From Octopus vulgaris (Eukaryota), in contig OX597824.1 of assembly GCA_951406725.2 (NCBI GenBank), forward strand, positions 10,292,001 to 10,356,000: DNA of 64,000 nucleotides. The letters are read 5' to 3'. Each line of letters begins with the position of its first letter. Position 1 is the stretch's first letter. The position numbers were made by a program, and so were the translations under genes. Under the pieces are notes generated by a model, which saw nothing but the letters and a program-made list of their open reading frames with translations, searched no databases and was not told the origin of the DNA. Positions 505-22,689 of the stretch are shown here, one piece after another.

Positions 505-787
505 AGATATTACAGTTCTATATTTAAGAGATGAGGAATTATGTACATTACTTACATTTGATGGATATTTGTCCTCATCTTGTTCGTTGTTAACACAACG
601 TTTCGGCTGATATACCCTCCCACCTTCATCAGGTGTCTTGGGGAAATTTTGAACCTGGGTTCTCATTCCTAAGGAATTTTTCAATGTTGTTGTTAATATT
701 TATTAGTCAGGTCACAGCCTGGAATCGAACTCAGAATCGTGGGGTTAGTAGCGCATGCTCTTAACCACTACGCGTAGTGGTTAAGAG
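505..787 (-). mobile_element. tRNA-headed non-autonomous element with Penelope-like hammerhead tail
   Basis: Minus strand: A-box-like gtagtggttaag and B-box gagttcgattcc, then the hammerhead; 30-bp terminal palindrome at 758-787. Confidence 0.6.
592..637 (-). ncRNA. Minimal type I hammerhead ribozyme motif (C3-G8 core)
   Basis: Minus strand: gacac CTGATGA a ggtgg-gagggtatat-cagcc GAA ACGT T gtgtt; stem I gacac/gtgtt, stem II, palindromic ACGT in place of stem III as in Penelope-associated hammerheads. Confidence 0.75.
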
Positions 788-1031
788 TTAACAGTATTCT
801 CCAGTATTTTCAACTCTAACATAAATCATAACATCTACAAATATACTTTGGAGAACTGGAATATGCATAAGTGCTTCATGAGAATACAGCTTGGATTATA
901 ACCCTATCTGTCTATTTATTTATATATAGCCTCCCTTGACCTCAAGTGGCCTGAACTCTTTACATGAACACCACCCTGTACTTAACTCCATGTCCCCCTA
1001 CATGGCCTTGCTATTTGCTTTTGAGCCAAAT

Positions 1032-1067
<36 letters not shown>

Positions 1068-1914
1068 ATATATATATATATATATATATATATTATTCAA
1101 AGGAATTCCAACTCTGTCTGTTTTTTATGTTTTATTTATATTCTTTATAATATTAATGTAGAATATAGAATATATAGTATAAATAATATATATATATATA
1201 GTAAAATGAAATGAAGTATTGATTGTCTTATTGAATATCAAATATTAAGGGACTAGTATAAATATATATATGTCTATTTATATGTATGTATGTATCTATC
1301 TATCTATGTGTGTTTGTATTTCTTTGCGACTGTGTTTTTGTCTCCCCACCACCACCACCTGACAATCAGTGTTGGCATGTTTACATCCCTGTAACTTAGC
1401 AGTCCAGCAAAAGAGAACAACAGAATAAATATCAGACTTAACAAATAAATATTTGTATCAATTTGATCACCTAAAAGGGGAGTGTCCCAGCACGGCCAGT
1501 TCAATAATTGAAATATGCAAAAAAAAAGAATTTTTTTAAAAACACACAACTGGCAGGCTCTGTTCAGAATATTAGGTCATTGCTCTCTCTCTTTCATAGT
1601 AAACTAATTTAGCCTACAATATGAACTATTTCTACAACTATTACTGTTTACTATAAATCTATAAATAGCATATACTTGACACTGTTTTCAATCCCACCCC
1701 TAATGATTGTGAAGAGAGGTGGATATAAATATGGAAAGCTAACATAGGGGTGTAGGAGTGGCTGCATGGTAAGACGCTTGCTTCCCAATTACATGGTTCC
1801 TAGGTTCAGTCCCACTGCATGGCACCTTGGGTGAGTGTCCTCTGCTATAGCCTCGGGCCAACTAAAGCCTTGTGAGTGGATTTGGTAGATGGAAACTGGA
1901 AGAAGCCCATCATA

Positions 1915-2560
1915 TAAAAAGCACCATCCGTTCGTGGCCGTTTGCCAGCTCGTCTGGCACCTGTGCGGGTGGCACGTAAAAAGCACCCACTACACTCACG
2001 GAGTGGTTGGCATTAGGAAGGGCATCCAGCCGTAGAAACACTGCCAGATTTGACTGGGCCTGATGAAGCCTTCTGGCTTCACAGACCCCAGTAGAACCGT
2101 CCAACCCATGCTAGCATGGAAAACGGACGTTAAATGATGATGATGATGATATATATCATCATCATCGTTTAATGTCCGCTTTCCATGCTAGCATGGGTTG
2201 GACGATTTTGACTGAGGGCTGGTGAACCAGATGGCTGCACCAGGCTCCAGTCTTGATCTGGCAGAGTTTGTACAGCTGGATGCCCTTCCTAACGCCAACC
2301 ACACCGAGAGTGTAGTGGGTGCTTTTACGTGCCACCGGCACGGGGGCCAGTCAGGCGGTACTGGCAACGACCTCGCTCATATCTTTTTACAGGTGCCAGT
2401 AAGGCGATGCTGGCAACGACCTCGCTCGTATCTTTTTACACATGCCAACGGCACAGGTGCCAGTAAGGCGATGCTGGTAACGATCTCGCTTGAATGGTGC
2501 TTCCTACATGCCACCGGCATGGAAGCCAGTTAGCTGCTCTGGCATCGATCACGCTTGGAT
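1915..2560. mobile_element. Two family A SINEs in tail-to-tail inverted arrangement
   Basis: + copy ends in (atg)n at 2150; minus copy starts with (atc)n at 2155. Confidence 0.85.
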
Positions 2561-3516
2561 ATATATATATATATATATGTATGTGTCTTTGTGTCTGTTT
2601 GTTTCCTCATCACCCCTTGGCAACCGGTGTTGGTGTGTTTACGTCCCTGTAACTTAGCAGTTCAGCCAAAGGGATTGTGAGAATAAGTACCAGGCTTAGA
2701 AATGAGTACTGGGGTCAATTCATTCAACTAAAAAAATTCAAGATGGTGCCCCAGCGTGGCCACAGTCCAATGACTGAAGCCAGTAAAAATAAAAGAAAAA
2801 ATATAGATGTAAAACTAATAATACTCAGACTGTATGTGGAAGGTATATATCTTAGTGGTAAACAGAAATGTTTTAGATTTTTGCCTGTAGCATTTACTAC
2901 ACCAAAAGGCTGAGCTAAATTATGTTCACTCTGTTGGTGAGACAGTTACAGCTTTGCCTTTATGGTGACATAAATGGTTATGGTATCATGTTATATTAAG
3001 AAAGCAGCAGTGAAATATGTGGTTGTAAGATATATTTCAATCAAGAAAATAGGACACTTACAAATTCATCTACATACACACACACACACACACACATGTA
3101 TATATATAGTAAATTAATAATGTATAGTGCTCAGGTGCACTACAACTCATCAAAGGTGCATGTACAGTACATAGAATTATGTACAAAGGTCAGGAAAGTG
3201 AACAGTGTAAGAGTCATGATATGCATACGTATGGAGCAGGGATATCAGGTGTAGTGTTGGCAAATTTCAGGAAGCCTGGAGGTTTTAAAAGATGAATGTA
3301 TGTGTGTGTATAGGTCGGTTGTCCATAAGTCTGAAAAAAGCATACTAAAATGTTTTTGTGTTTGATCAGTAATATTATATGTAGTTGTTTGGTATGGCCG
3401 GTCAGATAGTTATCATTAGTCTCAGGTCTACTGTTGCATTTAGCAATATAGACGAGATATCAGACTTCTTGACCGGAGGTACATAATCTCTTTATTAACC
3501 TCTTTACATCAGCTTG

Positions 3517-3770
3517 TGGAGGTGCGTGGCTTAGTGGTTAGGGTGTCAGCATCATGATCATAAGATTGTGGTTTCGATTCCTGGACCGGGCGACGCGTTG
3601 TGTTCTTGAGCAAAACACTTCATTTCACGTTGCTCCAGTCCACTCAGCTGGCAAAAATGAGTAACGCTGCGATGGACTGGCGTCCCGTCCAGCTGGGGAG
3701 CACATACGCCATGATACCAGGAAACTGGGTCCATGAGCCTGGTTAGGCTTTAAAAGAGTGCATTTATTTA
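3517..3770 (+). mobile_element. tRNA-derived SINE family E
   Basis: A box tggcttagtggttag, B box gtttcgattcc, gtgttcttgagcaaaacact domain; relatives at 25664-25890, 42930-43162 (minus) and 62920-63130. Confidence 0.75.
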
Positions 3771-4050
3771 TGTGGAGGCACATGGCCTAGTGGTTACAGC
3801 AGCGGACTGTGTGTGTTTATGAGCGAAAACACCTAAGTTCCACACGGTTCCGGCAGAAGGTAATGGTGAAACTTCTGCTGACTCTTTCGCCACAACTTTC
3901 TCTCACTCTTTCCTCCTGCATCTTGCAGCTCACCTGCGACGGACCGGCGCCCCATCCAGGTGGGGAACCTATACGCCAAGAAACCAGGAAACTGGCCCTT
4001 ATGAGCCAGGTATGGCTCGAGAAAGAACAAACAAATACATGTATATATAT
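3771..4050 (+). mobile_element. SINE, same family as 11523-11821, internally deleted head
   Basis: High identity to the reverse complement of 11523-11821. Confidence 0.85.
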
Positions 4051-4142
4051 GTGTGTGTGTATATAGAGTCCACAAAAAAAATATATACATATTTCAAAAA
4101 GAATGGGTGCAGGATTAATACAAGTTACCTTTAAACTCTACA

Positions 4143-4560
4143 GTTACAGGTGTTGCTCAAAGTGGTGACCATTAGCCTCTGGACATATTAGTATGGTGAA
4201 CTACTGCTTTGGCAATGTTGACCAAAATGTCCAAAGGGATTGCTGCACGTTCTTTTTCAGTTCCTTTCTGAAGGGCCATCATTGTAGCCAGTTTTCTGCA
4301 CTGTATACGACATCCTTTAAGGTACCCCATAAATATAAGTCTGCAAGTGTTAAATCAGAAGAATGGGTAGGGAACTCAACTGCACCCTCTTCATCTTATC
4401 TAGAGTCCTTGCAGATTTATATCCAGGTAAGCTCGGTGGTATATTTCCTTGAAAGAGAAATTCCTCATTTTCATGAAGTGCAAGTATGGCAGGTAAAATG
4501 AATGTGCACTTTACCAGTAAAAGTAACTTCAAAGGAAAATAGTTTGATTAAACTTCTTGT
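4143..4560 (-). mobile_element. Decayed Tc1/mariner transposase C-terminus (rosa/DD41D-like)
   Basis: Minus-strand translation with stops and frameshifts: RGAVEFPTHSSDLTLADLYLWGTLKDVVY...EANGHHFEQHL*. Confidence 0.7.
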
Positions 4561-4680
4561 TGACACTCCATAGCAGATATTGATTTGCAGTGAATCAACT
4601 GCTTTGTCCACATGCAAGCAAGGATTTTTTAGTATCCAGTAAACACAGTTGTATTGGTTCCCTGTTCCATTTAGCTAAAA

Positions 4681-4822
4681 CTAGCAGTATTGCCCAGCGC
4701 TGCTCGGGTTTGTTTCGACCCTTTAGAATTGGAATTTTTGAAAAGTAAAAATTTTGCATTATGTAGCTTGTTATTCTCTTTAAGTGGACATTTTTCTGGT
4801 TGAAATACACTGAAAAATGGTG
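4681..4822 (-). mobile_element. Non-autonomous Helitron, 3' fragment
   Basis: CTAG end plus cccgagcagcgctggg hairpin on minus; shares sequence with 29903-30355 and 52404-52682. Confidence 0.7.
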
Positions 4823-5254
4823 CTTTTTACATAGCACCATTACCGGTACTTTTTATGTGGCTCCAGCATCAATGCTTTTTACGTGGCACTGGCACCAGTG
4901 CTTTTTACATGGCATTAGCTCCAACATGAATACTTTTTACATAGCACCTTGGTTTTAGGCTATCAATTCTGTTGTCATGGGCAGGTCTTCATAAGTACAA
5001 ACAACGTGCTGCATATTTCAGTCCTCTGTCATCTCCTTCATAAGACTCATCATTTTGAGATCAAATTTCAGTACTTCGTCTCATATCTTCCTGGGTCTCC
5101 CTCTTCCACAACTTCCCTCCATTTTAAGTGATCGGCATTTCTTTAAGCAACTGTCCTCATCCATCCACATCACGTAACCAAACCAGTGCAGTCTTTTCTT
5201 TTATGTGTATGTATGTTTCTCTTCTATTTTTAATCATTTACAAATACAAACTCC

Positions 5255-5395
5255 ATGATATTTGAGGAAATTAATAATAATAGACAGATATAATTAATAT
5301 ATGTAGTATAAAATTATGTTTCTTTGATATGCTAGAAAAATAATAAATATATTTCCATAGAAACAGTGGTTGCAAAATCTAGTTGTTGATATTGA
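5255..5395. repeat. Inverted duplicate of 15547-15696
   Basis: About 140 bp of AT-rich sequence, near-identical reverse complement apart from small indels. Confidence 0.9.
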
Positions 5396-5601
5396 ATGTA
5401 GATAATGGAAACAATGTCACAGTTTAAACCTGAGAAAAGACTTGCATAATTTTACTGTTTGGCTTCCAGATTGTATTTGTAATCTCCCAGTTAGATGGTT
5501 GATTTCTTTTTCTAAAAATCAAGCTTACCCAGACTGACAGTTAGGCATTTACTTATAAAACCAAGTGCTACAATTATTATTGGTATAACCGTAAATTTAT
5601 A

Positions 5602-5814
5602 CTGTTGTGTCTGGAGAGAGTCATTTTCTTTTTGTGCCTTATAATGTAACACACTCACCGGTAAAATTTCCACTTATTTCTTATTTTTATTTTCCTAAAA
5701 TTTTCGTTGTGTCTTGCAACCTTTTCAATAGTCTTGAAATAAGTGGAAATTTTACCGGTGAGTGTGTTACATTATAAGGCACGAAAAGACAGTGACTCTC
5801 CCCAGACACAACAG
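5602..5814. repeat. Fold-back element, 79-bp inverted arms (Penelope-like inverted terminal repeat)
   Basis: Arms 5602-5680 and 5736-5814 are near-perfect reverse complements; the loop holds the hammerhead-like motif. Confidence 0.85.
5695..5731 (-). ncRNA. Minimal hammerhead-like motif, U3-A8 variant
   Basis: Minus strand: cta TTGAAAA g gttg-caagaca-caac GAA AATT T tag; stem I is only 3 bp in this copy. Confidence 0.5.
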
Positions 5815-5830
5815 AATATGCTTCAACACT

Positions 5831-6225
5831 CATCATCATCATCGTTTAACGTCCGCTTTCCATGCTAGCATGGATTGGACGGTTCAACTGGGGTCTGGGA
5901 AGCCCGAAGGCTGCACCAGGCCCAGTCAGATCTGGCAGTGTTTCTACAGCTGGATGCCCTTCCTAACGCCAACCACTCCAAGAGTGTAGTGGGTGATTTT
6001 ATGTGCCACCGACACAGGTGCCAGATGAGGCTGGCGAACAGCCACTCTCAGATGGTGTTTTTTATGTGCCACCGACACAGGTGCCAGACGAGGCTGGCGG
6101 ACGGCCATGCTCGGATGGTGTTTTTTATGTGCCACCGACACAGGTGCCAGACGAGGCTGGCGAACGGCCACGCTTGGATGGTGTTTTTTATGTGCCACCG
6201 ACACAGGTGCCAGACGAGGCTGGCG
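5831..6225 (-). mobile_element. Family A SINE with internal about 63-bp tandem repeats
   Basis: Four ttttatgtgccaccgacacaggtgccaga units. Confidence 0.85.
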
Positions 6226-6229
6226 ATAA

Positions 6230-6540
6230 AAAGTCTTACAAACCAAATCCAAAAATGAAACGTAAATTTATAATTGTGATATAGAATCTGGAGGTTTTGA
6301 AGCTGTTGTCCACAGTTATCTTCTTTCTCTTTGATTTTTAAAGAGATATTCACATCAACAGGACAGCTGACTTCTGTGATGGTACAAACTTTTTCTTGTC
6401 TCTCCTAAACAACAATATCTGGCTTGTTAGGCTTACACCTGACAGATATTTGATGGGAATGTTCTACTAGTTTTATTTTGTGCTGGTATTGATGTATGCA
6501 TTTGATAACCCTGGGGATCCTATATATTTATTCCAGAACA
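6230..6540 (-). mobile_element. Fragment of a non-LTR retrotransposon with restriction-like endonuclease (R4/Dong-like)
   Basis: Minus: CKPNKPDIVV*ERQEKVCTITEVSCPVDVNISLKIKEKEDNCGQQLQNLQILY, fitting the PD..E..K RLE motif. Confidence 0.7.
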
Positions 6541-6549
6541 GTCTTTGTT

Positions 6550-7440
6550 TCACGTGTGTTTACGTATTTTTCACTCATTGGTGATGTCTTGTACTTAATG
6601 TGTATTTTCTTTATTTATTTATAATTGAACACCACGCAGCCTTGTCTACAGTAAGTTCTTAAATTTATATATAAATTCTGCGAGTTCACACTGTTTTCTT
6701 TCTTTCTTTCTCTCTATCCCTCTATAATCCTCTATATTTTCCGTTTCTCCTCCTCCTTCATTGCTGTCACCTGTCTGTCTGTCTTCCACTTCCTACTTTC
6801 TTTGTTTTCTTCCTTCTCCTCACTTTGTTTCCTTCCCTTATCCTATCTGCCTCTTGCCCACATGTGACTATAGGCCATTTCTCTCACCTCTGTCTTTTCT
6901 GGACCAGACGTCCACCTAGCTGGACATCATTTCTCTTGCCTCCTCACATTTCTTTTTCTCTTCTATTTATTCTATATCCTTTCAAAATTTCTCCCAGGCA
7001 TTATACATTACAATTCATCTTGGCCTAACGGCCCTTAATATTTGTTGATTGTTTACTCTGTACATCCACTCTGTTGTTCTATCTTCATTTGAAGCCCTGA
7101 CTCTCCAAAAGTATAATATTTTAAAAATTTCTGGATACTGTTGTTTTATGAAGTTTTTCCTATATTTTCATTGGAAGTACAAAATACGGAGTAGTAAAAC
7201 AGTCAACAACTGACGAGGAGTTATCTTCTTTTGGTATTTTGTCCTGTACTTATCTCGGGTTTACGTATTTCTCACTCATCCATGATGCCCTGTAATTATT
7301 TTGGAAGATTTGGTATTTTATCGTGTACTTATCTCTCGTGTATTTAAACATTTTTCACTCGTTGATGATGTCTTGTAATTCATGTGTATTTTGTATTTAT
7401 TTACAATCGAATGTCATACAGATTTGTCAACAGTAGTTCT
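6550..7440. mobile_element. Old element with about 110-bp imperfect direct terminal repeats
   Basis: 6552-6660 resembles 7337-7440, with a partial third copy at 7258-7297. Confidence 0.45.
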
Positions 7441-7449
7441 CGCAATTAT

Positions 7450-8295
7450 ATGTATGTATGTATATATGTGTGTGCATATATATATATATGTATATACATA
7501 AAGATGTAAATGTACACACACAAATATACATATATATATCATCATCATTAAACGATGATGATGATGATATATATATGTATATTTGTGTGTGTGTATTTAT
7601 ATCTTTATGTGTATATATGTGTGTGTATATATGTGTGTGTGTATGTATATATGTGTATATATATATATGTGTATATATATGTGTATATATATATGTATAT
7701 GTGTGCATATATGTGTGTATGTATGTGTGTATGTGTGCATATATGTATATGTGTGCATGTATGTGTGTATGTGTGCATATATGTATATGTGTGCATATAT
7801 GTATATGTGTGTATATATGTATATATATATGTGTGTGTATATATATATATGTGTACATATGTGTGTGTATATATATATATGTGTACATATGTGTGTGTAT
7901 ATATATGTGTGTGTATTTACGTTTGTATATATATGTGTGTGTATTTACGTTTGTATATATATGTATGCGTATGTATATATGTATGTATGCATATGTATAT
8001 ATGCGTATGTATATATGTATGTATGCATATGTATATATGCGTATGTATATATGCGTATACATATATGCGTATGCATATATATATATATGCGTATACATAT
8101 ATGCATATATATATATATGCGTATACATATATGCATATATATATATGTGTATACATATATGCATATATATATATATATGCGTATACATATATGCATATAT
8201 ATATATATATGCGTATACATATATGCATATATATATATATATGCGTATACATATATGCGTATATATGTATGTGGATATATATATGTATGTATATA
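7450..8295. repeat. Compound (TA)/(TG)/(TATG) microsatellite
   Basis: Alternating purine-pyrimidine tract; source of the spurious YI/CV/HT ORFs. Confidence 0.97.
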
Positions 8296-10505
8296 TGGTG
8301 GCGAGCTGGTAGAAATGTTATCACACCGGGCGAAATGCGTAGCCGTATTTTGTCTGCCGTTACGTTCTGAGTTCAAATTCCACCGAGGTCGACTTTGCCT
8401 TTCATCCTTTCGGGGTCGATAAATTAAGTACTAGGTACGCACTGGGGTCGATGTAATCGACTTAATCCGTTTGTCTGTCCTTGTTTGTCCTCTCTGTGTT
8501 TAGCCCCTTGTCGGCAGTAAAGAAATAGATATATATATGTATGTGTATATGTATATGTCTATATTTGTGTATATATATATGTCGTAATCTGTCATCAACC
8601 CCAATGCCCAGCTGGTATTCATTTCATCAACCCAAAACAGATGACAGGCAAAGTTGACCCTGGTAGCAGTTCAAACTTAAAACATAAAGTCAAACGATTA
8701 TGCTGTTAAGCATTTCCCCTGGTGTGCTTAGAAATCTGCTAGCTTTCTGCCCTAAGCTTAACATAAATATTAAATCTAAATTATTGTAGCATATCACATT
8801 ATTTCGACATGGTTTAATTCTTTAACAAACCTTAGTAAGACATCATCAACCCTTTTGATACCAACCCAACTGAAACTGGCTCTGGCTCTGATTACAATTG
8901 TTTTCATAAGTTTTGAATTAAAATCTTCCACCAAACGTTAGCCACAATTTATGTTCCTAACACTAGCTGAATGATAACTAAGTTATTTTACTAAACTCTT
9001 TGTTAAATTTAAAGTAACTGAAAGAAACACAGAGCATCTCATCAGAAATATGGTAACTAAAGGGTTAAAGTCACCATGATATTTTTAATGAACCCTTTTG
9101 ATACCAACCCAGCTGAAACTGCCTCTGGCTCTGTAGTACAAATGTCTTGTTTTCATAAGTTTTGAATTAAAATCTTCCACCAAACCTTAGCCAAAATTTT
9201 TGTTCCTAACACTAGTTTAATAATAACTAAGTTATTTTACTAAATTCTTTGTTATATTGAAAATAATAGAAAGAAATACAGAGCATCTCAAAATAAATAC
9301 AGTAACAAAAACGGGTTAAGTGTCTCAGAATACAGATATCGGTTGTTGTTTTGTCTTCTCTGTAATTTAAGAGTAAACATATCAGTGTGTTTACTCATTG
9401 CAGCTGAGTGCTAACATTGATGTGCTTTCTGTGTGTAAATTATTAGCTCATTTCATAGTAATATATTAAGAATTAATTGTACTTTGCTGTTTGCAGGATT
9501 TTGGTCCGATTCATTTACGCCCTCTGTTGGTGTTTTTCGCATGTAGTAATGACATCCACGTGCATGTAACGTCTGCAGTGCATAATTTGACATCACTGTG
9601 ACAACTTAGTCTTCACATATGGCATTTTCTGATGTTTAATTGTATGGTGTCTTCTCCAGCATGGCCTTGGACTGCTGAATGCCATACACTTAACTATTTC
9701 TTGTCTGCCAATCTTAACCTCTGGAATTCTTTGCTCATTTCTTCTTCCAACAACCATTAACTATACGAGCATGTTCTTTTCTGTTTAGGAATTGGAAAGG
9801 TTTTATGGTGACTTCCCCCTCTTCTTCAGATTAACTAAGAATTTATCTTTTTTTCCTCTTTTCTTTTTACTTGTTTCAGTCATTTGACTGCGACCATGCT
9901 GGAGCAGTGCCTTTAGTCGAGCAAATTGCCCCCAGGACTAATTCTTTGGAAGCCCAGTACTTATTCTATCGATCTCTTTTGCCGAACTGCTAAGTTACAG
10001 GGACGTAAACACACCAGCATCGGTTGTCAAGCAATGTTGGGGGGGACAAACACAGACACACAAACATATACACACACATACATACATATATATGGCAGGC
10101 TTTGTTCAGTTTCTCTCTACCAAATCCACTCACAAGGCTTTAGTCGGCCCTAGGCTATAGTAGAAGACACTTGCCCAAGGTGTCACGCAGTGGGACTGAA
10201 CCCGGAACCATGTGGTTCATAAGCAAGCTACTTACCACACAGCCACTCCTGCACATCTGTGTACATTTCCATATGAACTTGATGCTAAGTGGAACTTTTC
10301 AGATATATTCAATGCGATTCTCAATCTCTGCCAGCTCTGTAGGACCATCTAGCTTAATCTGGTTCAGACACGACATGAATAGATGATGAGTCATACATAT
10401 AAGAGATGCATATGCTGTCATGTGTGTGTGAGAGCATTGACATTAGTTGTGAGTAGTAACACAACATGGTAGGCCCATCTTACCCATGTTAATATTAGAA
10501 AGATT

Positions 10506-11821
10506 CTGTTGTTGTTTGTTTGTTCCTTTTCGAGCCATGCCTGGCTCATAAGGGCCGGTTTCTTGGCGTATAGGTTCCCATATATACATATATACATGTA
10601 TTTGTTTGTTCTTTCTCGAGCCATGCCTGGCTCATAAGGGCCGGTTTCTTGGCGTATAGGTTCCCATATATACATATATACATGTATTTGTTTGTTCCTT
10701 TTCGAGCCATGCCTGGCTCATAAGGGCCGGTTTCTTGGCGTATAGGTTCCCATATATACATGTATTTGTTTGTTCCTTTTCGAGCCATGCCTGGCTCATA
10801 AGGGCCGGTTTCTTGGCGTACAGGTTCCCATATATACATATATACATGTATTTGTTTGTTCCTTTTCGAGCCATGCCTGGCTCATAAGGGCCGGTTTCTT
10901 GGCGTATAGGTTCCCATATATACATGTATTTGTTTGTTCTTTCTCGAGCCATACCTGGCTCATAAGGGCCGGTTTCTTGGCGTATAGGTTCCCATATATA
11001 CATATATACATGTATTTGTTTGTTCTTTCTCGAGCCATGCCTGGCTCATAAGGGCCGGTTTCTTGGCGTATAGGTTCCCATATATACATATATACATGTA
11101 TTTGTTTGTTCCTTTTCGAGCCATGCCTGGCTCATAAGGGCCGGTTTCTTGGCGTATAGGTTCCCATATATACATATATACATGTATTTGTTTGTTCCTT
11201 TTCGAGCCATGCCTGGCTCATAAGGGCCGGTTTCTTGGCGTATAGGTTCCCATATATACATATATACATGTATTTGTTTGTTCTTTCTCGAGCCATACCT
11301 GGCTCATAAGGGCCGGTTTCTTGGCGTATAGGTTCCCATATATACATATATACATGTATTTGTTTGTTCTTTCTCGAGCCATGCCTGGCTCATAAGGGCC
11401 GGTTTCTTGGCGTATAGGTTCCCATATATACATATATACATGTATTTGTTTGTTCCTTTTCGAGCCATGCCTGGCTCATAAGGGCCGGTTTCTTGGCGTA
11501 TAGGTTCCCATATATACATGTATTTGTTTGTTCTTTCTCGAGCCATACCTGGCTCATAAGGGCCGGTTTCCCGGTTTCTTGGCGTATAGGTTCCCCACCT
11601 GGATGGGGCGCCGGTCCGTCGCAGGTGAGATGCAGGAGGAAAGAGTGAGAGAAAGTTGTGGCGAAAGAGTCAGCAGAAGTTTTGCCATTACCTTCTGCTG
11701 GAGCCGTGTGGAGCTTAGGTGTTTTCGCTCATAAACACACACATCGCCCGGTCTGAGATTCGAACCTGCGATCCCTCGACCGCGAATCCGCTGCTCTAAC
11801 CACTAGGCCATATGCCTCCAC
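10506..11821 (-). mobile_element. tRNA-derived SINE with a 13-copy tandem array of its 3' end (86/78-bp units)
   Basis: SINE head at 11821 (ggaggcatatggcctagtggttagagc...ggttcgaatc on minus); unit spacing 86 or 78 bp; whole structure flanked by attagaaagatt (10494-10505, 11822-11833). Confidence 0.9.
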
Positions 11822-14352
11822 ATTAGAAAGATTATCTTGAGAACAATAATGATGGTGTTACGATCACATATTCAGTGTTTCTTAGTAACTTAACTTTTCG
11901 GTACTTCAAATGCTTTCGTCTTTAAAGACTCATAAAAGAAGCGGTAGATAAACTTAACATAAGTTGTTGGATGGTGTATTTTAGGATAGATTTTGGCCCA
12001 AGGCAGACTGGTGCTTTATTTAGGAGCGTTCACATTTCTTATATCAAGAAAAAAAATAAGATGGAATATTTTTAAACAATTTAGAGAAACTCTAAGAATT
12101 GAGATATATAGTTGGACTATAATTCTCATAATTAAAAGATTTAAGTTCCAAAGAATCAACAAAAAAAGTTATGGTTCTAACATTCCAACAGTTAAAAGAG
12201 CTTTTTTTTTCTAATAATTTCTATTTTAATTATCAAACATTTTAACTATGTTTTTAACATTCAAAAGTGTTCCTGTCATATACACATGCACTCACACACA
12301 TGCATATGCACTCTCTCACACACACACACACACACTCTCTATATATGTGATACGTATACAGAGGTAGTGAATGCTATCAACTGAGGGAAATGTGTTATCT
12401 TCTGCTGCTAATAGAACTGGATATAATAACTTGTAATCTATACAAAATGGTAGCATGGTTGTGTGATGCAGTTTTAACTCAGTGGTATTCCAAGCTGAAG
12501 TTTGGAATCATTAATTTTTCATAGTATGAAAAATGAATGATTTTTTGCACTGGGTTAAAAGACTACATTAATTTGATGACTAATATTGTTTAATCATTTT
12601 GGCAAGTACAGGAGAAAACGAACAATGCTAGACTTGTTTCAGAATTATTGGGCTGTACCAATAAACTATTGCATTTCATGCAGTTGACATCAGGAAGAGA
12701 TGAAGGAGATGACTAAGGATTGAGATATTTGACATCTTGTTTTACTCATGAAGAATTGATATCTTGAAAGAGTTTTGTCTTGCAAATTACTTGGTGACCC
12801 TGTCAATGCTGGTGCCACATAAAAAGCACCAGTACTGGTGCCATGTGAAAAGCATCGGTGCTGGTGCCATGTGAAACGCATCAGTGCTAGTGCCATATGA
12901 AAAGCACAGGTGCTGGTGCCATCGAAAAGCACCGGTGCTGAAAAGCACAGGTGCTGGTGCCATCGAAAAGCACCGGTGCTGGTGCCATCGAAAAGCACCG
13001 GTGCTGGCGCCACATAAAGAGCACCCAGTACAATTTGTAAAGTGGTTTGCACTAGGAAGAGCATCCAGCCTTATAAACCATGCCAAAACCAACAATGGGG
13101 CCTGGTGCAGCCTCTGACCTTACTGGCTCCTGTCAAATTGCCCAACCTGTGCCAGCATGGAAAACAGACGTTAAATGACAATGATGATGATATTTCATAC
13201 ATAGTAACGTACAGTAATGTATATTGGACTTCATCAGCCTTCGCAATGCTTGCCAAAGAGATTCTCTGTATAGATAAATTAAGCAGAAATATGTTTGAAG
13301 TTATCTCTTGTATTGCTGAAATGATCAAAATGATATTTAGTCATCCTGCTAATATTTCTTTTCCTCATCCCTTAAATATGTTACATTATATTTTTAATGT
13401 TCATTGTGTTCCACATGTTATCTCTGCAGAGGACTTGCTGGTCAATCCCTCTGCAGAACTTACAACCTGTTTGGCATCATGGGCCAGTTGACTGCATGAC
13501 TATCAGATTATTTTTAGAGGCACTAAAGGTTGTTACAAGGCGACTATGAGGCCAGGAAGGGTTAGTGTTAACCAGGCATGAGCTGGGGCTTGATCAAGCT
13601 CAGCTGGGTTGCTTGGATGAAAGTGTCTGGTGTTGAAAGACCCAAGACATATATTGACACCAGGAAACATCGATGGTGATGTGTCCAGGTGCATCATAAG
13701 ATGATATGTGGAAAAACTTAGTACTAATTTAAATACTGTATCTATGGTGTGATGTGGAGTTGAACATCATAGGACAAACATGAACATTGTTCAGTAAAAT
13801 AGATGTTATTTGTATGATAGTTTTATAAACAGACCAGAAAATTTGAAACAGAAGGAGACAAAATTGAATGAAAGTGCATTAGTAAGAAACCCTATTACTT
13901 CTATTTTTTTTTTGTACTGCATGAACCTCAGACAAAGTGGCAACGATTTGTACTAATTGAATTAAGATTAAATGAACATTACTAAAACAGATTTCAACAT
14001 TCCCCTCCTATGACACATTTTACTATACAAACATACATGCATGTGCACACAGACGCATGTACACTCATACATTAAAAGCAGATGAGATAACGAGATAAAT
14101 TAATTGCATGCCCTGCAATTGTCTTATCTCTCTGTGAGGATGTATAATACTGCTTCTTTTTTTCTTTTTCTTTTTATCATAATTAACATTTAATTTGTTT
14201 AGTTAATTATAGTTACTCATTTGCTTTGGTTCACATGTGTGTATATATATATATATATCATCATCATCATCGTTTAACGTCCGTTTTCCATGCTAGCATG
14301 GGTTGAATGGTTCGACTGGGGTCTGGGAAGCCAGGAGGCTGCACCAAGTTCA

Positions 14353-14510
14353 TACGAGGGTTTGCTGAAAAGTTCCTGGCTTTTAGGGTATTGCAAAAGG
14401 TTTGGTTGGAGGCCCAACCTCCTGAGTTCTTTTACAGGGCTTAGAAAAACTGAAAGGACCATTGCAATAAGTGTGTGAATCTGAAAGGGGAATGTGTTGA
14501 ATAAAATCAC
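14353..14510 (+). mobile_element. Mariner-derived MITE fragment
   Basis: TA-cgagggtttgctgaaaagttcctggc TIR-like start; CNKCVNLKGECVE* remnant. Confidence 0.55.
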
Positions 14511-15226
14511 TGCTTGACAACCAATTTGTTTATGTCCCCGTAACTTAGCAGTTCGGCAAAAGAGACTGATAGAATAAGAACTAGGCTTACAAAGAATAAG
14601 TCCTGGGGTTAGTTTCTTCCACTGAAAGCAGTGCCCCAGCATGGCCGCGATCAAATGACTAAAACAAGTAAAAGAAGAAAAGAATAAATGAAACGTTTGA
14701 AAGAAAGATGGGTTGGTCATGGCTGGAACAGTTTTGATCATAGTCCTCCTGGATTAAGGCAAACCTGAGACTAAATGACATGACTTGAATCAAAAAGGTA
14801 TAGCAGCCAAATAGACCATGAATCACACTTGACTTTTCGCCCTTTAGCCTTCAGATTTCTTTGTCAAATGTAATGCTTATTTATTCCCAATTTTGAATTA
14901 ATCATGCATTATCTCATAGCTGTTGTGATTTCCATGATGTCATTGTTTATTTCTAAAATAACATTATCAGGCTGGTGTTTGAAACTGGATCTGGACTGTT
15001 TGGAAGTAAAGACTGGCAGAATATTTTTGGCTGGATGTGGCAGTTTAAATGCTAAAGGGTTTAAGTAATACACCGGGAATTGGCTCAGAAGCTTTTGAAC
15101 TTATATCAGCATCCACTCTAGTCTAACACCTTGACTGGGGGCTGTCAAAGGAGACCGTCTAGTTAATGGTCTGACCTGTTAGAAATAGCGACAAAATCTC
15201 CCTCAAATTACACTGTGCTGTCTTAA

Positions 15227-15429
15227 CCCTTTCATTACTGTATTTATTTTGAGATGCTCTGTGTTTCTTTTAATTGCTTTAAATATTACAAAGAATTTAG
15301 TAAAATAACTTAGTTAGGAACATAAATTGTGATTAAGGTTTGGTGGAAGATTTTAATTCAAAACTTATGAAAACAAGACATTTGTACTCAGTGCCGGAGC
15401 CAGTTTCAGCCGGGTTGGTAACGAAAGGG
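15227..15429. mobile_element. TTAA-flanked MITE (piggyBac-like termini)
   Basis: ttaa|ccctttcattac...gtaacgaaaggg|ttaa; further copies at 8850-9064 and 9093-9315. Confidence 0.8.
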
Positions 15430-17394
15430 TTAAAAAAGAGGACTTAGATTATGCAGTCAGATAAACTCTATCTCAAAAGACAGAATGGTCAATGGCTTGC
15501 CTGTCTTTGATCTTGGTCTACTTGACTAGGTCTGGCCTGAGGTTAATCAATATCAACAACTAGATTTTGCAACCACTGTTTCTATGGAAATATATTTATT
15601 ATTTTTTCTAGCATATCACAGAAACATAATTTTATACTACATATATTAATTATATCTGTCTGTCTATTATTATTATTAAATTTCCTCAAATATCATCTGT
15701 TTCCAATATTTACTTTAACCATGTGTATACACATGTATGTGTGCTACTGAGATATTAAACAAAAAAACCAGACTAATTAAGTGCATTAATATGATCCATC
15801 ATTATTCTAAAAAGATGTTTTTCTATAGCATTTTTATTGTTTCTTTTTAACTGCTTCTAACATCCACTTACAGCAAAGGTCCATCCATTATGATTGGTTT
15901 TTATTAAATGTAGTATTACGTGGAAATGGAAAGCCTTGAGAGAAATATGCCTGGGATAAAGATGTGTGCTATGAATCATCATTCACAATCACTGTTTCGG
16001 TTTCTCCTGTGCTCTCGAGTACATTGCGCAGCAAGTTGGACATCACTGGTTTCTGTTGGCTTGTGGTTTTTCTCTGTATCTGGCCGAGCTGGCAGAAACG
16101 TTAGCACACTGGGCGAAATGCGTAGCCGTATTTCGTCTGCTGTTACGTTCTGAGTTCAAATTCTGCCGAGGTCGACTTTGCCTTTCATCCTTTCGGGGTC
16201 GATTAAATAAGTACCAGTTACGTACTGGGGTCGATATAATCGACTTAATACCTATGTCTGTCCTTGTTTGTCCTCTCTGTGTTTAGCCCTTTCTGGGTAA
16301 TAAAGAAATAGGTATTTCATCTGCCGCTGCGTTCTGAGTTCAAATTCTGCCAAGGTTGACTTTGCTTTTCATCCTTTCGAGGTTGATTAAATAAGTACCA
16401 GTTATGCATTGGGGTCGAAGTAATTGACTTAATCCGTGTGTCTGTGCTTGTTTGTCCCCTCTGTGTTTAGTCCCCTGTGGGTAGTAAAGAAATAGGTATT
16501 TCATCTGTCTTTATATTCTGAGTTCAAATTCTGCCAAGGTCAACTGTGCCTTACATCCTTTCGGGATCGATAAATTAAATGCCAGTTGCGTACTGGGGAT
16601 CAATCTGATCCACCGTCCCCACCCTCCAAAAATCTCAGGCCTTGTGCCTAGAGTGGAAAAGAATATTGGCCTGTCATATCAGTTATGAATGTTTTGTACC
16701 ATTAGTTTTCGATCTTCCTCTAGTTCTTTTCCTCTCCAGTGCTGTCCATTTGAAAGCTGTTTTACAAGGGCATTGTCCAGGTAGCTGGAGTATGTAACCT
16801 GGTGATATACATCCTATATCTGTCCTGTATGTGTCTACAACCATTGTCTTCATCATCGCTTAACGTCCGTTCTCCATGCTGGCATGGGTTGGACGGTTCG
16901 ACTGGGGTCTGGGAAGCCAGAAGGCTGCACCAGGCTCCAGTCTGATCTGGCAGTGTTTCTACAGCTGGATGCCCTTCCTAACACCAACCACTCCGAGAGT
17001 GTAGTGGGTGCTTTTTATGTGCCACCGGCACAGGTGCCAGGCGAGGCTGGCAACGGCCACGATTGGATTGGTGCTTTTTACGTGCCACCAGCACGGAAGC
17101 CAGTCAAGGCGGCACTGGCATCGGCCACATTCGGATGGTGCTTTTTACGGATCTCTTTATGCTCTTTTGAATTTTCTGATTTTCATTTCTTTTTTCCATA
17201 AATTCATCCTACCCATTCTCTTTTTACCTTTTCACTCTTTCATCATAATAATGTCTCATTTCAGATTCTTCTTTGCTAAATTCTTTCTTACTCTTACATC
17301 CTTTTCAATCACCAAATTGCAATAATTCACAGCAAATATCACCAACTTTCACTAATTTCTCTCGGTTATCTCTGATCTCAAATCTTGAAGGATG

Positions 17395-17825
17395 TCATCA
17401 TCATCATTGTTCGACCGTGGTCGAGACAATGGAATTTACCATGCTACGCCAGACTTCACGGTCCATCATAGCATTACGGAGGTCCTGTTGCTGGATGCCT
17501 GTATACCTAGAGATTACATCAGGGTAGGAGAGTGTGCACCCTCTGGTATTGCGAGTAGATGGCTTCCAGAGGAGAAGAGTAGAAATTGCCTCGTTTTCAG
17601 CTCTACAACAATGTCCAGCAAACTGGACTCTTCTACCTTTCACAAGAGATGATACAGGTGGTAGTTTCCCCATATATTTGCATTTTGGTTGGATGACGCT
17701 TCCACAAGAGATTTTGAGCTCTCATAAGGAGGCGAGTGTAGGTTCCATCCAACCGCCTCTCAAGCTTCTTTGATAACGTCCAGGTTTCTGAGCCATATAG
17801 TAGAATTGGTTCGACTGTGGCTGTT
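17395..17825 (-). mobile_element. RTE-clade LINE 3' end
   Basis: Minus: VEPILLYGSETWTLSKKLERRLDGTYTRLLMRAQ...QFAGHCCRAENE...DREVWRSMV, followed by a (TGA)n tail. Confidence 0.88.
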
Positions 17826-18520
17826 GAAGCATGTAGAAGAGATATATGGACTGTCTCTCAACAGTGGTGTTTGTACAACAGCCGGGGACAATGTCCTTCT
17901 TCCAATCTAATGAATAAACAATACTATACTGGCATTAATCATCTATGATAAAGTATTTAAATGTAGATACACTTGCCAGATCACGTACACATTCATGTGA
18001 CCATTTACATAAATACCCTCATGTGACCATGCACAGACATTCATGAAAATAACCATGCATACAAATATTCATGTGAGCTCACAAACACAAACACACACAC
18101 ACACACTTTTTTGCTCATGTGAGTGCTTACACATATACTTACGTCAGCTAATAGATGAATATTCACATGAGTTAATACACACAGACATGTATGCATCCTA
18201 ATGAGAATTAATGCATACGTTAATTCGTATATGCACATTCTCACTAAAATACAAACATATTCACACATTTTCCCAATAAACTGTAGAAAAAAACCCATTT
18301 TAGCATGTCTACATTTTATTCTATTGTGGTGTGTATTCATTTATTTATGCCTTCATTATACTTTTGTTGTATACCGTGCTATTGTATTGGATTGACCTAA
18401 AATTCTGTTCGGTTTTTATCAACAGTAAACTTGAAGCACTCGAATAAGTAGCTAACTTCAGTCTGTCCCTTTTGCATCAATGTAGTTTGGCATGAACTTG
18501 CAAAGAGGCAGGTTGTATCT

Positions 18521-18521
<1 letters not shown>

Positions 18522-18554
<33 letters not shown>

Positions 18555-18705
18555 AATTGTTGTATACAGTGCTCAGGTGCACCACAACTTGTCAAAAGTG
18601 CGTATAAAGCATATGCAGTAATGTACAGATGTCTGGAAAGCGAACAGTGTATGAGTCAGATTCATGCTTGCATATGTTTGGAGGGGAGAAAATCAGGTGT
18701 AGTGT
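18522..18705 (-). mobile_element. CR1 LINE 3' UTR copy
   Basis: Reverse complement of 46965-47141 including the (AAT)n tail; an older copy lies at about 3115-3290. Confidence 0.8.
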
Positions 18706-18849
18706 AAAAAATACTTGGAATCTTCCCGAAAATAGAGAAACACAAACATTATCAACACCTCATGCCCTTTTATTTAAAAAAAAAAAAAACAGAAAGAAAG
18801 TGTTAGAAACTTACAGGAAGATATTTGCTGTTTAATGGAGGGGATGCTG

Positions 18850-18985
18850 TTATAGAAAGTGTGTGCCAGAAGTGATTTTCAAGATTTCTTTTGAGAAATT
18901 TTTTGGTTCAAGATGCACCTCCCTCTGGCCAACCAACTGAGATAAACAGTGACAAAATGAAGCAGTTAGTTGCCACCAACCTCTA
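18850..18985 (+). mobile_element. Mariner transposase N-terminal relic
   Basis: VQDAPPSGQPTEINSDKMKQLVATN resembles mariner D.PRSGRP.....DKIK. Confidence 0.55.
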
Positions 18986-19834
18986 ATCATGCTATAGTTA
19001 CAGTTTATTCTATGATTTAATCAATGAATTAATGGCAGAAAAGGCTTTGGAAATGACAACCAGAGTGAGATATCCATTTTTTTCTGTACACAGAAGTGAT
19101 ATGTCTGGCTTTGATCCATCTATTTTTCCATCAAGTAATTTGGATAAAATATCTGAAGAATGGTTGAACACTGTTATTGGTCATGAAACTGAACCTTCTA
19201 CTAGTGTTGTTGGTGCAAAAATATCTTTAGGACTTGGTGTGAAACCTGTTAAGTGTTTTGTTTGACTTTTTCTGTTAAGTTTTGATTGGTTCAATCAAAC
19301 AACAAACTAAATTGAATGCAGAACAAAACAACAGTCAACTTTATTATTCCTGCACACCTGGGTTTGTTGTTTCTGATTAAATTAAGTTTTCCTGTAAATC
19401 TCAAAATGAATAAACTTCAAATAATCATGGCACCTTGGGCAAGTATCTTCTACTGTAGCCTCAGGCTGACCAAGAAGAAGAATTTAAATGATTACATACA
19501 GAGGACACACACACACAAATAGATAATGATTATTATCAACAGAATGGTTTATCTGTCTGATCATCTCTTTGATTTGTACAGAGCATGTGCAGAACCAAAA
19601 CTGAGTAGGGAGTCGCATCAGTACAGTAGATTTTGAAGCAAAACTGTTTATCTCAATCTTCTCATCCATTCAGATCTCTTCCTGCTGTTCACAGCTGAAA
19701 CAGCTTAAAATACAAAGCACACATACACACTTACATATATAGAATATGATATTAATCCTTGTAATCATCCATCTGAGATCTAGCAAACACTATCACATTA
19801 TATGACAAATTAAAAAAAAAATAATTGTAAGAAA

Positions 19835-20075
19835 ACAATTGCAGCGTGGAAGAAACACACAAAAACCATTAGATTCACTTCAACATTTAAATTTAATTTG
19901 TCAAAATATTTTCATCGCTTTGATACCGCAGCCTGTTCACTGACAAAATTCCGTGCTGGATCTAACGGTTTTTGTGTGTTTCTTAAATGGCTTATAAACA
20001 CGTTCCACGCTGCAATTGTTTTCGTTCCAGCACACGATCTCAAATCGGGTCACTTGCTATGCAAGTACATCTCCG
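19835..20075. mobile_element. Fold-back Penelope-like short element with 13-bp target-site duplication
   Basis: taattgtaagaaa at 19822-19834 and 20076-20088; inverted blocks caattgcagcgtggaa / ttccacgctgcaattg and gaaacacacaaaaacc / ggtttttgtgtgtttc. Confidence 0.7.
19897..19947 (-). ncRNA. Minimal hammerhead-like motif, G3-C8 variant
   Basis: Minus strand: tttgtca GTGAACA g gctgc-ggtatcaaa-gcgat GAA AATATT T tgacaaa; perfect 7-bp stem I, palindromic AATATT, partly decayed stem II. Confidence 0.55.
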
Positions 20076-22689
20076 TAATTGTAAGAAAGAATAGCAGATA
20101 AAGAGAGGTGCAGATGAGGACATATGCACAATAGATGTACTCAGAGGCATTAGCATACAAATGATTATTTTGACAAAATTAAGCATAGAACCTTGGTGTC
20201 TACAACCAGACACTTGCTCAAGGTACAACACAATGGAAACTGAACCCGAGCCCATGTGACTTCAAAGTGAGCACTTTAAGCACACAACAATGCTGTGAAA
20301 AATGACCACTAATCTATAAGTGGAAGTTTCATGTTGACAAAACCAATCTGAGATGAAATTCAGCTGTAGAAACCATGCCAATACAGGCATGGAGTCTGGG
20401 CAGGTCTTCAGCTGGCCAGCCTTTGTCAAACCCATGCCAGCATGGAAAATGGATGTTAAATGAAGATGATGATGATGATTTCAAATTACAGACCAGCAGT
20501 TATCTTCAACTGCTACGTTATAAGTATATGCAGGATTGGCTGCGTGGTAAGTAGCTTGCTTACCAACCACATGATTCTGGGTTCATTGCCACTGCATGGC
20601 ACCTTGGGCAAGTGTCTTCTACTATAGCCTCAGGCCGACCAAAGCCTTGTGAGTGGATATGGCAGATGGAAACTGAAAGAAGCCCGTCGTATTTATGTAT
20701 GTGTATATATAAATATATGTGTGTGTGTGTGTGTGTGCATGTTTATGTGTTTGTGTTTGTCCCCCCCCGACATCGCTTGACAACCAATGCTGATGTGTTT
20801 ATGTCCCCGTAAGTGGTTTGGTAAAAGAGACCGATAGAATAAATACTAGGCTTCCAAAGAATAAGTCCTGGGGTCGATTTGCTCGACTAAAGGCTGTGCT
20901 CCAGCATGGCCACAGTCAAAGGACTGAAACAAATAAAAGAGCATGTTTTATATAAATACATACATATTTATATTAGGGTATATCTGTGTGTGTATGTATG
21001 TATGTATATCTACCAATCTCATAGATGTACATCTTTCATCTTTTACTCATTTAGCTCATTGAACTGTGCCCATACTGGGGCACCCTCTTGAAGTGTTTTG
21101 TTAAACAAGCACTTATTGTTAAGTCTGGTACTTATCCTATCAGTCTCTTTTGACAAAATGCTAAGTCAAGGGGAAATAAACAAACCAACATCAGTTGCTA
21201 GGTGGTAGTGGGAGACAAATACAAACACACACACACACACACACACACATGGCAGGCTTCCACACAGTTAGAAATTCACTCACAAGGCATTGGTTGGCCC
21301 ATGGCTGTAGTAGAAAACACTTGCCCAAGGTACCTTGAATGGTATGGATGCAAAGTGAGCTTCTTAAACATACACCCATACCTATAGACACATATTTGCC
21401 TGTGTGTGTGTCTGTGCAGTTCAACAATTTTATTAAACACTAATAACTTATTTTCGATGCATGTTTGATGAATATGCAACAGTGATATTTTAATGCTGTG
21501 CCTGTCTGTTGTCTTTTGGGTGTTGTCATCTGTTTAAATAATATTGCTGTGTTAACCAGCTTCCTACAGAAAGTTGTCGTTTTACCTTTTGACATTTAAA
21601 CCAACCACATCCAGCCTGCATATACCACTTGCTTTATGTCCCAACCAGTCAAATCCTGCCCATCACACCTACCCTTCAATGCCATCCTAAAAATATGCTA
21701 TCACACCATCAAAATTTCAAAGCTTTCAGATAATATATGATTAATTAAAAATGTGAATGAAACAGCATTACATTTGCCAGAATAATCTGAATGCTAAAAG
21801 GTTAACTATTCTAAAGAATTTCTATATATTAACAAAAGAAGTTCATTCATGTGTAGTATTTTTGTTTATCTAAGATTCACACAGGATAAGGTCAACGTTC
21901 TCTCATTGACACATAATGTGTTAGTAAAATGAACCTCACGCAGAACATGATTTAACATATTTAATACTTTAGTCTAGCCATAAAGTGTAAATGGGCCTGT
22001 GTTGACCTAGCTGTTAAACTTATAACACCTACACATCTTCCCACACACGGAGAATGTTAAAGATCTGGCTGCTAAAAAAATAGCTGCCATATCTTACTCA
22101 GATCTCATCTTACTACCTTTAAACACTGGATTGGCTCCTGTACAAGTGGTACGTAAAAAGCACCATTTGAGCGTGGCCAGTGCCAGTACTGCCTAACTGG
22201 ACCTCGTGCCGGTGGCACATAAAAGCACCCACTATGCTCTCGGAGTGGTTGGCGTTAGGAAGGGCATCCAGCTGTAGAAACTCTGCCAGATCAGACTGGA
22301 GCCTGGAGCAGCCTTCTGGTTCGCCAGTCCTCAATCAAACCGTCCAACCCAGTTTAACATGGAAAGCAGATGTTAAACTGCATTGATGATGATGATGACA
22401 CAATGGATGATGTGATCCTATGTATAAATCTCTCTCTTTTTCTCTCTCTTTTTTTTCTCTCTCTCTTTTCTCTCTGTTTATGTTTCAGTGCATGTGTGAT
22501 GTATCTGTCCCTTTCTCTTTTGCTCTATTTATATATTTCTGGGTGCAGATGCACATATGTGTTTGTGTGTGTGTCCAGCATCAAAATGTAATGTCGCCAA
22601 AACAAGTTGAATGTCCAGTCAGCCATGCCAAATCATCAGCATCCCAACAGCAATGCCCTGTTGTCTCATTCCAGTAACTAAGAGTTCAG

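Follow-up and report, generated by a model that had tools for sequence, protein, structure and literature searches.

What kind of element carries the three short hammerhead-like motifs on the minus strand of a 64,000-nt stretch of the Octopus vulgaris genome (assembly GCA_951406725.2, contig OX597824.1, positions 10,292,001 to 10,356,000; the window)? An initial annotation, made from the letters of the window, had placed these motifs (here F1, F2 and F3) in unrelated, non-autonomous fold-back families belonging to Penelope-like elements (PLEs). Searches of the 2.8-Gb assembly (227 contigs) indicate instead that all three are almost certainly the 5′-truncated 3′ ends of three protein-coding Penelope-like retrotransposons, two of which (F2 and F3) are sister elements with different base pairs at core positions 3 and 8. 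Among named proteins, the nearest to one of the parent proteins is a predicted protein of O. vulgaris (58% identity). Loci sampled from the assembly are given L numbers.

Three minimal hammerhead motifs in the window

All three motifs were recovered on the minus strand exactly at the positions first assigned to them and with the shared layout described (Table 1). F1 combines the core CTGATGA with an extra A and the palindrome ACGT, F2 the core TTGAAAA with an extra G and AATT, and F3 the core GTGAACA with an extra G and AATATT; U17 is present in each. A descriptor (core NTGANNA, optional extra base, stem II, GAA, A...U palindrome, H17, stem I) with a stem II of at least 3 bp matched two sites in the window (F1 and F2), versus 0.03 per dinucleotide shuffle (60 shuffles, maximum 1). 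Without the stem II requirement it matched three, versus 0.18 per shuffle (maximum 2), F3 being found only in this form because stem II of the window copy is damaged (GCTGC/GCGAT; the family majority, GTCGC/GCGAC, is fully paired). In stem II, the window copy of F1 departs by two changes from its own fully paired family majority (GGCTG/CAGCC) and, folded alone, does not adopt the hammerhead fold.

In the family majorities stems I and II pair, a palindrome replaces stem III, and U4, G5, A6, A9, G12, A13, A14, A15.1-U16.1, H17 and a Watson-Crick 3-8 pair are all present, as in minimal hammerhead ribozymes (min-HHRs); ViennaRNA folds monomers into stems I and II. An Rfam scan of the window gave no hammerhead family among the matches listed (best 150 of 179), which were mostly microsatellite-driven miRNA matches, and a scan of one F1 copy gave neither a hammerhead nor a tRNA among 5 matches.

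Coding parents of F2 and F3

For both F2 and F3 an endonuclease-bearing Penelope-like frame was found upstream of the motif. Among F2 copies, 6/30 extend upstream into a microsatellite-rich untranslated region (UTR), and three of those six reach the C-terminus of a GIY-YIG endonuclease. In 22/30 loci found with the F2 endonuclease protein, the F2 motif follows in the same orientation, 636-1278 nt past the stretch that matched. The F2 parent in L167 matches Pfam GIY-YIG above the cut-off (28.7 bits) and RVT_1 weakly (E 0.008), and in L166 a 665-aa frame with reverse transcriptase (RT) motifs ends 665 nt before the F2 core.

The F3 parent is preserved intact in L418, where a 1025-aa frame contains a YVDD motif and a GIY-YIG domain (25.4 bits; cut-off 22.6), Pfam RVT_1 not being matched by this frame, and the F3 core follows 1006 nt downstream. 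All ten of the other best-matching parent copies compared are 98.3-99.3% identical to L418. The F3 unit was located downstream in 21/30 loci found with the parent protein (within the 1.5 kb examined) and in 20/20 longer stretches, which had been picked for the strength of the match or the length of the frame, and in three cases for a neighbour already known; 18 of the 20 have the G3-C8 core. Nine exact matches to one extended F3 variant proved to be longer copies, leading to a decayed parent frame, and L421 is a partial tandem in which two identical F3 motifs lie on the same strand, 4261 nt apart. The F3 G3-C8 family is therefore young and has an intact RT/GIY-YIG frame. The assignment of the motifs to minimal type I hammerheads of PLEs is borne out by their position in the 3′ UTR (pseudo-long terminal repeat, pseudo-LTR) of RT/endonuclease frames.

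The F2 and F3 parent proteins are 54% identical over 674 residues, and the elements, far from being unrelated, are sisters. Their motifs differ by four compensatory pairs, namely the 3-8 pair (U3-A8 in F2, G3-C8 in F3), one stem II pair (U-A versus C-G) and two swapped stem I pairs; the palindromes differ as well (AAUU versus AAUAUU). From position and parentage, the two motifs would be homologous.

Three parent loci have other features. The 3′ UTR of a decayed F3 parent in L371 contains two interruptions, an insertion of ~4 kb that resembles an LTR retrotransposon and a SINE-like (short interspersed element) repeat. The very 3′ end of an F2 parent in L159 is the site of an F3 insertion that faces the other way, with similar F2/F3 neighbours at C1:53.76 Mb. 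L133 (3620-4846) contains a single-frame host gene of 409 aa, which by its motif resembles a sulfotransferase, with an F2 parent fragment just downstream.

Parent of F1 and its tRNA-like segment

Among 30 extended F1 loci the motif was found downstream in 25 and a protein C-terminus directly upstream in 22. One F1 frame fragment matched 16 proteins at 51-61% identity, and 13 of them are annotated with an RT domain (PF00078); F1 parent fragments (fragments only) match the L124 protein with an E value of 8e-13. Linkage to Penelope RT/GIY-YIG frames is seen for F2 and F3, both downstream of such a frame, and for F1 reaches a protein whose fragments resemble RT-bearing proteins and gave no Pfam GIY-YIG match. 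A PLE frame adjoining the F1 tail in L307 was judged to be a chance neighbour, and a 781-aa Penelope family found through Pfam GIY-YIG (L121-L129) carries a fourth, U3-A8 motif and is not the parent of F1-F3.

As F1, F2 and F3 all continue upstream into coding parents in longer copies, the notion of separate non-autonomous families finds no support: the short fold-backs are truncated insertions of coding elements. F1 may in addition contain a SINE-like sub-element. A tRNA-like segment, including A-box-like and B-box-like stretches, lies just after the end of the F1 protein frame; because F1 parents extend upstream of it (477 exact matches to the upstream sequence), the segment is inside the 3′ UTR. 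Compared with genomic tRNAs, it matched 30 of six isotypes, the best being tRNA-Arg (scores 49-54.5 against tRNA-Arg genes, versus shuffled means near 25 and maxima of 35-43.5).

One could therefore propose true non-autonomous sub-elements besides the truncated parents, a reading to which we assign a modest minority chance. In F1, the tRNA-like segment would act as an internal RNA polymerase III promoter giving a short SINE-like ribozyme RNA, inserted by the Penelope protein; in F3, the usual start 24 nt before the core would mark a second such unit. The tRNA-Arg scores point this way, as do the F1 copies with 5′ ends at the segment start (8/28 tail-selected copies; 4/6 in the window and the content-blind sample described below). 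So do the F3 copies chosen for reaching -24, of which 0/50 share junction-adjacent upstream sequence, and the mere nine exact matches to the extended F3 variant. Against this, F1 and F3 both run on into parents, 4/28 tail-selected F1 copies pass the segment start and 16 end 3′ of it, every hot spot of ends falls on a short hairpin or palindrome, at which the growing cDNA might snap back, and ARAGORN gave no tRNA in 20/20 F1 loci, as did Rfam in the one copy scanned. F1 is thus tRNA-like and has a hot spot of ends, as a tRNA-derived SINE would, but the segment is internal to the 3′ UTR of a parent. Two earlier filings, in which F1 was a tRNA-headed SINE and F3 a non-autonomous unit that always began at one 5′ end, were dropped after longer copies and parents had been found.

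Insertion structure of the short copies

An inverted partial copy of the 3′ end lies directly upstream of the sense arm in 41/60 F1, 22/30 F2 and 43/60 F3 copies, the length of the inverted arm differing from copy to copy. Flanking duplications of at least 8 nt were identified in 20/60, 14/30 and 26/60, respectively, versus 0.7, 0.4 and 0.9 for shuffled pairs, and range from 8 to 16 nt. In the window, F2 and F3 have the inverted arms expected of the proposed fold-back elements; F1 has only a 30-nt palindrome, with no long fold-back (Table 1). F3 ends fall into two groups ~58 nt apart, at +121-128 (17/50) and +179-183 (27/50), and a tail on one side only is seen in F1 and F2 as well. The copies thus have the pseudo-LTR partial tandem, inverted 5′-truncated copies and one-sided tail of PLE insertions, for which an inverted arm, one-sided tail and target duplications have been described (PMC8557442; PMC11167929).

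Table 1 Features of the three Penelope-like insertions in the window.
Feature	Position	Strand	Details
F1 insertion (whole), 5′-truncated 3′ end of Penelope-like element	513..787	-	
F1 3′ tail, usually on one arm only	513..545	-	
F1 minimal hammerhead motif, C3-G8 core	592..637	-	stem I 637-633/596-592, core 632-626
F1 motif, remaining parts		-	stem II 624-620/609-605, palindrome 601-598, U17 = 597
F1 tRNA-like segment	704..773	-	A-box-like 773-765, B-box-like 732-721
30-nt palindrome (short snap-back), 5′ end of F1 copy	758..787	.	
F2 sense arm, last ~140 nt of 3′ UTR of RT + GIY-YIG element	5598..5737	-	
F2 minimal hammerhead motif, U3-A8 core	5695..5731	-	core 5728-5722, U17 = 5698
F2 fold-back arm, a partial copy of the F2 3′ end in inverted orientation	5738..5828	+	
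F3 target-site duplication (12 nt), one copy	19822..19833	-	
F3 sense arm, truncated pseudo-LTR of young RT + GIY-YIG element	19834..19963	-	
F3 minimal hammerhead motif, G3-C8 core	19897..19947	-	core 19940-19934, U17 = 19904; stem II damaged in window copy
F3 inverted arm with ~58-nt tail	19957..20077	+	
F3 target-site duplication (12 nt), other copy	20076..20087	-	

The preferred 5′ ends of F1, F2 and F3 each coincide with a tiny hairpin or palindrome (GCCC-AC-GGGC, AGTC-AA-GACT and TGC-A-GCA), and many junctions at these hot spots are snap-back palindromes. In L202 (880-1110), the 5′ half of the F3 motif is repeated four times in tandem, in units of 64 nt, within one fold-back insertion; the six bases with which short F3 copies usually begin are predicted to be able to pair with the tail end (L202), possibly by chance.

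Copy number and covariation of the 3-8 pair

First-look candidates numbered 2570 (F1), 2481 (F2) and 2748 (F3) genome-wide, family counts including both arms of a fold-back. The 30-nt F1 tail has 3666 exact matches and the F3 core with intact stem II 5220; queries with the 3′ parts of F2 and F3 gave 3576 and 3482 matches (counts only). Separately, 58 stretches of 10 kb (580 kb; 18 adjoining the window, 40 at round coordinates) were sampled blind to content. Searched with a descriptor free at positions 3 and 8, as had been proposed, this sample yielded 13 matches, all with a Watson-Crick 3-8 pair (7 C-G, 5 U-A, 1 G-C), while 12 shuffles gave 0.25 matches each, none with such a pair. The 13 matches represent six families and not 13 independent events, and the pair is Watson-Crick in all seven hammerhead families seen, the seventh being the U3-A8 family of the 781-aa RT/GIY-YIG element, in keeping with the covariation of positions 3 and 8 first noticed in the window. 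Two of the three window cores escape a CUGANGA search and 6/13 blind-sample cores are not C3-G8, so searches of that kind undercount such motifs, as had been foreseen.

Within families the pair is largely constant, being C-G in 75/80 F1, U-A in 71/72 F2 and G-C in 64/67 F3 arms (partly core-selected), and when both positions were unconstrained, G-C was present in 95 and a single mismatch in five of the first 100 F3 matches. U4, G5, A6, A9 and G12-A14 are the majority letters in F1-F3, though other pairs differ. Tallies of F2 and F3 ends and conservation rest on partly selected copies; with this reservation, non-CpG mismatch was lower in the core than in the flanks in F2 (0.017/0.064, ORF-selected, that is, by open reading frame) and F3 (0.029/0.040, similarity-selected), and columns with at least 15% variants lay outside the core in both (0/8 in the core in F2, 0/12 in F3). 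Five of the 12 variable F3 columns are in loop II and one, in stem I, keeps a U-G pair; those of F1 (at least 15%) are N7, one flank column and one gap column at 16.1. A pattern for a second G3-C8 family with another first stem II pair gave 52 matches versus 33 for its control, the excess consisting of mutated F3, and one for an A3-U8 family gave no sign (724 versus 1699 for the control); both patterns cover cores with the extra purine and G10.1-C11.1.

Predicted cleavage by the motif

The explanation that we favour, and hold to be probable, is that the short copies are truncated Penelope ends bearing a motif that cuts RNA as an assisted dimer and is kept by selection on source copies; real cleavage in this form is predicted, and we consider it likely. 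Cutting of element RNA after U17 would require two copies to join at their palindromes, probably with the help of the element's protein. The element's endonuclease would nick AT-rich DNA, and RT would start at either of two sites near the RNA 3′ end, which would account for the one-sided tail; reverse transcription would often stop early and fold back, giving short inverted-repeat copies. Full-length tandems such as L421 would put two motifs on one RNA, where the palindromes could pair and the protein assist, and the ribozyme would be kept by selection on such source copies. Scattered short copies, with single motifs often opposed by their own antisense arm, would likely be inactive by-products. 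Minimal Penelope hammerheads are weakly active and require either dimerisation or a longer helix III (PMC4209133). The Anolis element needs protein for cleavage and uses mainly uncut RNA as template, and engineered C3G/G8C partly rescues cleavage in a Penelope hammerhead (PMC11167929).

Several observations weigh against this explanation or parts of it. The 5′ ends of arms coincide with the predicted cut in 4/19, 1/25 and 2/42 cases, little or no excess over the 1.3, 1.0 and 1.9 expected. The palindrome duplex is weak (+2.2 kcal/mol for AAUU, -0.2 for AAUAUU), computed dimers lack a stem III duplex, and in the ViennaRNA fold of F3, G3 is paired with U17, which may be a trap (PMC3884650 considers a similar one between positions 3 and 17). 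The F1 core shows no better conservation than its flanks (non-CpG mismatch 0.035 versus 0.038; 0.064 versus 0.047 in tail-selected copies), the lower mismatch of core than flank being seen in F2 and F3. Stem covariation, which the initial annotation proposed to test, is seen between the sisters F2 and F3, and no compensatory double changes were found within F1, F2 or F3; we infer that this within-family pattern reflects neutral decay of insertions together with constraint on source lineages. A G3-G8 core is present in 4/9 long F3 copies (L377-L380), all on C29, and twice in L432 (C16), these copies having come either from segmental duplication or from a source lineage that multiplied although it lacked the pair. 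As to F1 itself, no intact parent was seen, Pfam matched neither GIY-YIG nor anything relevant in four parent fragments, and its endonuclease and Poseidon-like look are putative, the assignment resting on a sequence motif.

An alternative that leaves the elements as described is that the motif is not catalytic in vivo and is instead a protein-bound fold, an RNA mark or a passenger, with uncut RNA as template. That copies keep the whole motif with no clear pile-up of ends at the cut site, and that G3-G8 copies exist, would fit such a role. So would the lack of effect of ribozyme mutants on insertion in vitro and of RNA sequencing reads ending at the cut (PMC11167929), and the success of Naiads without hammerheads (PMC8557442). 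It is hard to reconcile with positions 3 and 8, a tertiary pair of the active fold, being Watson-Crick in all seven families, or with the constant U4, G5, A6, A9 and G12-A14 of F1-F3 despite their differing other pairs, and we regard it as unlikely. That the copies are DNA-transposon MITEs (miniature inverted-repeat transposable elements) or chance matches with an accidental resemblance to hammerheads, as their fold-back shape, short length and AT-rich sequence might suggest, is refuted by the link of the motifs to RT/GIY-YIG frames and deserves practically no credence, since the parents encode RT, shuffles give almost no matches, and variable inverted arms and duplications of 8-16 nt take the place of fixed terminal inverted repeats and a short fixed duplication.

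Under the favoured explanation of assisted dimeric cleavage, the octopus elements bear on the role of Penelope hammerheads, which cleave poorly in vitro and are dispensable for insertion in one reconstituted system (PMC11167929). Sister ribozymes differing by four compensatory pairs, including the catalytic 3-8 pair, are good comparative evidence of selection on the active fold, and the intact young G3-C8 element offers an RNA together with its matching protein, with which protein-assisted dimeric cleavage can be studied. Short fold-backs of this kind could be misfiled as MITEs or SINEs.

Relation to known systems

No natural G3-C8 core was found in the literature, in which only engineered variants were encountered. 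Lunse et al. 2017, reportedly covering about 150,000 variant hammerheads of Penelope elements, might include one, as might Arkhipova et al. 2017; the chance that the natural G3-C8 family is new is therefore perhaps even. No cephalopod Penelope hammerheads were found in the literature, and for tRNA-headed or non-autonomous Penelope elements just passing mentions of non-autonomous PLEs (PMC8557442; 10.1101/596502). Octopus repeat annotation lists recently active Penelope families, the word hammerhead being absent from the portion of its main text available (PMC13282606).

The closest match is with the metazoan Penelope min-HHRs (Cervera and De la Pena 2014, PMC4209133), which are likewise type I with a palindrome replacing stem III. 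They share the extra base between 9 and 10.1, G10.1-C11.1, a common U17, action as dimers, the pseudo-LTR site, and mostly single truncated copies with opposite-strand pairs 100-700 bp apart. The min-HHR class, extra base, palindromic stem III, dimer action, U17 and U3-A8 cores in Penelope elements are thus already known from that paper, U3-A8 cores being reported in Schistosoma mansoni (about 1,300 matches) and natural U3-A8 also in PMC3088659. The representatives in its Fig. S3, as read, have CUGA or UUGA cores only, with no G3-C8 and no cephalopod, whereas the octopus genome has three different 3-8 pairs, of which two belong to sister elements. The octopus sequences add a reversed core pair in a young, intact element, four compensatory changes between two sisters, and a tRNA-like segment located within one 3′ UTR. 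A bolder proposal combines three parts: that F3 is the first natural G3-C8 family, recently active and catalytically competent; that with its U3-A8 sister it records a two-step swap under selection; and that the tRNA-like segment of F1 drives a ribozyme SINE mobilised by a Penelope protein rather than a long interspersed element (LINE). Such a combination is tentative and, taken jointly, rather improbable.

The Anolis Poseidon element PAc (Frangieh et al. 2024, PMC11167929) has the same RT with C-terminal GIY-YIG, pseudo-LTR hammerhead and AT-rich targets, and two RT start sites explain its optional tail, as proposed here. The tail is longer in F3 (about 58 nt versus 30-40 in PAc); the frame of PAc begins within the ribozyme, whereas the next unit in L421 begins beyond the tail; and G3-C8, an engineered mutant in PAc, is the natural state of a high-copy family in octopus F3. 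With the Neptune/Nematis-type PLEs (Craig et al. 2021, PMC8557442), F2 and F3 parents share a Cys-rich linker between RT and GIY-YIG (CX4CX2C, CX3CX2C), partial tandems, inverted 5′-truncated copies, tails and microsatellite-rich surroundings, a likeness in features. Short Penelope-tied hammerhead repeats are also known as non-LTR retrozymes and Schistosoma SM-alpha SINE-like repeats (PMC7229834, PMC6765202, bioRxiv 10.64898/2026.07.22.740005), SM-alpha being drawn with a promoter ahead of the hammerhead. These repeats are mostly arranged in tandem, and the ones tested by PMC7229834 have canonical hammerheads, whereas F1-F3 are dispersed, mostly single or inverted copies that are continuous with coding parents.

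Other hammerhead families and repeats

Copies of the fourth Penelope family (L121-L129, L098-L119) are numerous and nearly identical; they have an ORF1 upstream of the 781-aa RT/GIY-YIG frame and, in the 3′ UTR, a U3-A8 hammerhead whose palindrome is ACATGT. A further U3-A8 family occurs as two variants with homologous flanks (L231, with two copies 362 nt apart, L241 and L109), which differ in the first stem II pair (G-C or A-U) and in the palindrome (ACGCGT or ACATGT); the change at the palindrome centre is compensatory, as a dimer model would predict (2 matches per variant). Two C3-G8 families in fold-back form were also seen, CTGACGA with ACGT (L209, L228, L256) and CTGAAGA with ACAATTGT (L250, L126), parents being found for neither.

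Elsewhere in the window, tandem arrays of 86-nt (10429-11656) and 26/20-nt (26473-27068) units and a long (TA/TG) microsatellite (7440-8300) are present. Two SINE-like repeats lie tail to tail at 2091-2210, forming a hairpin, and several further abundant SINE-like families were noted.

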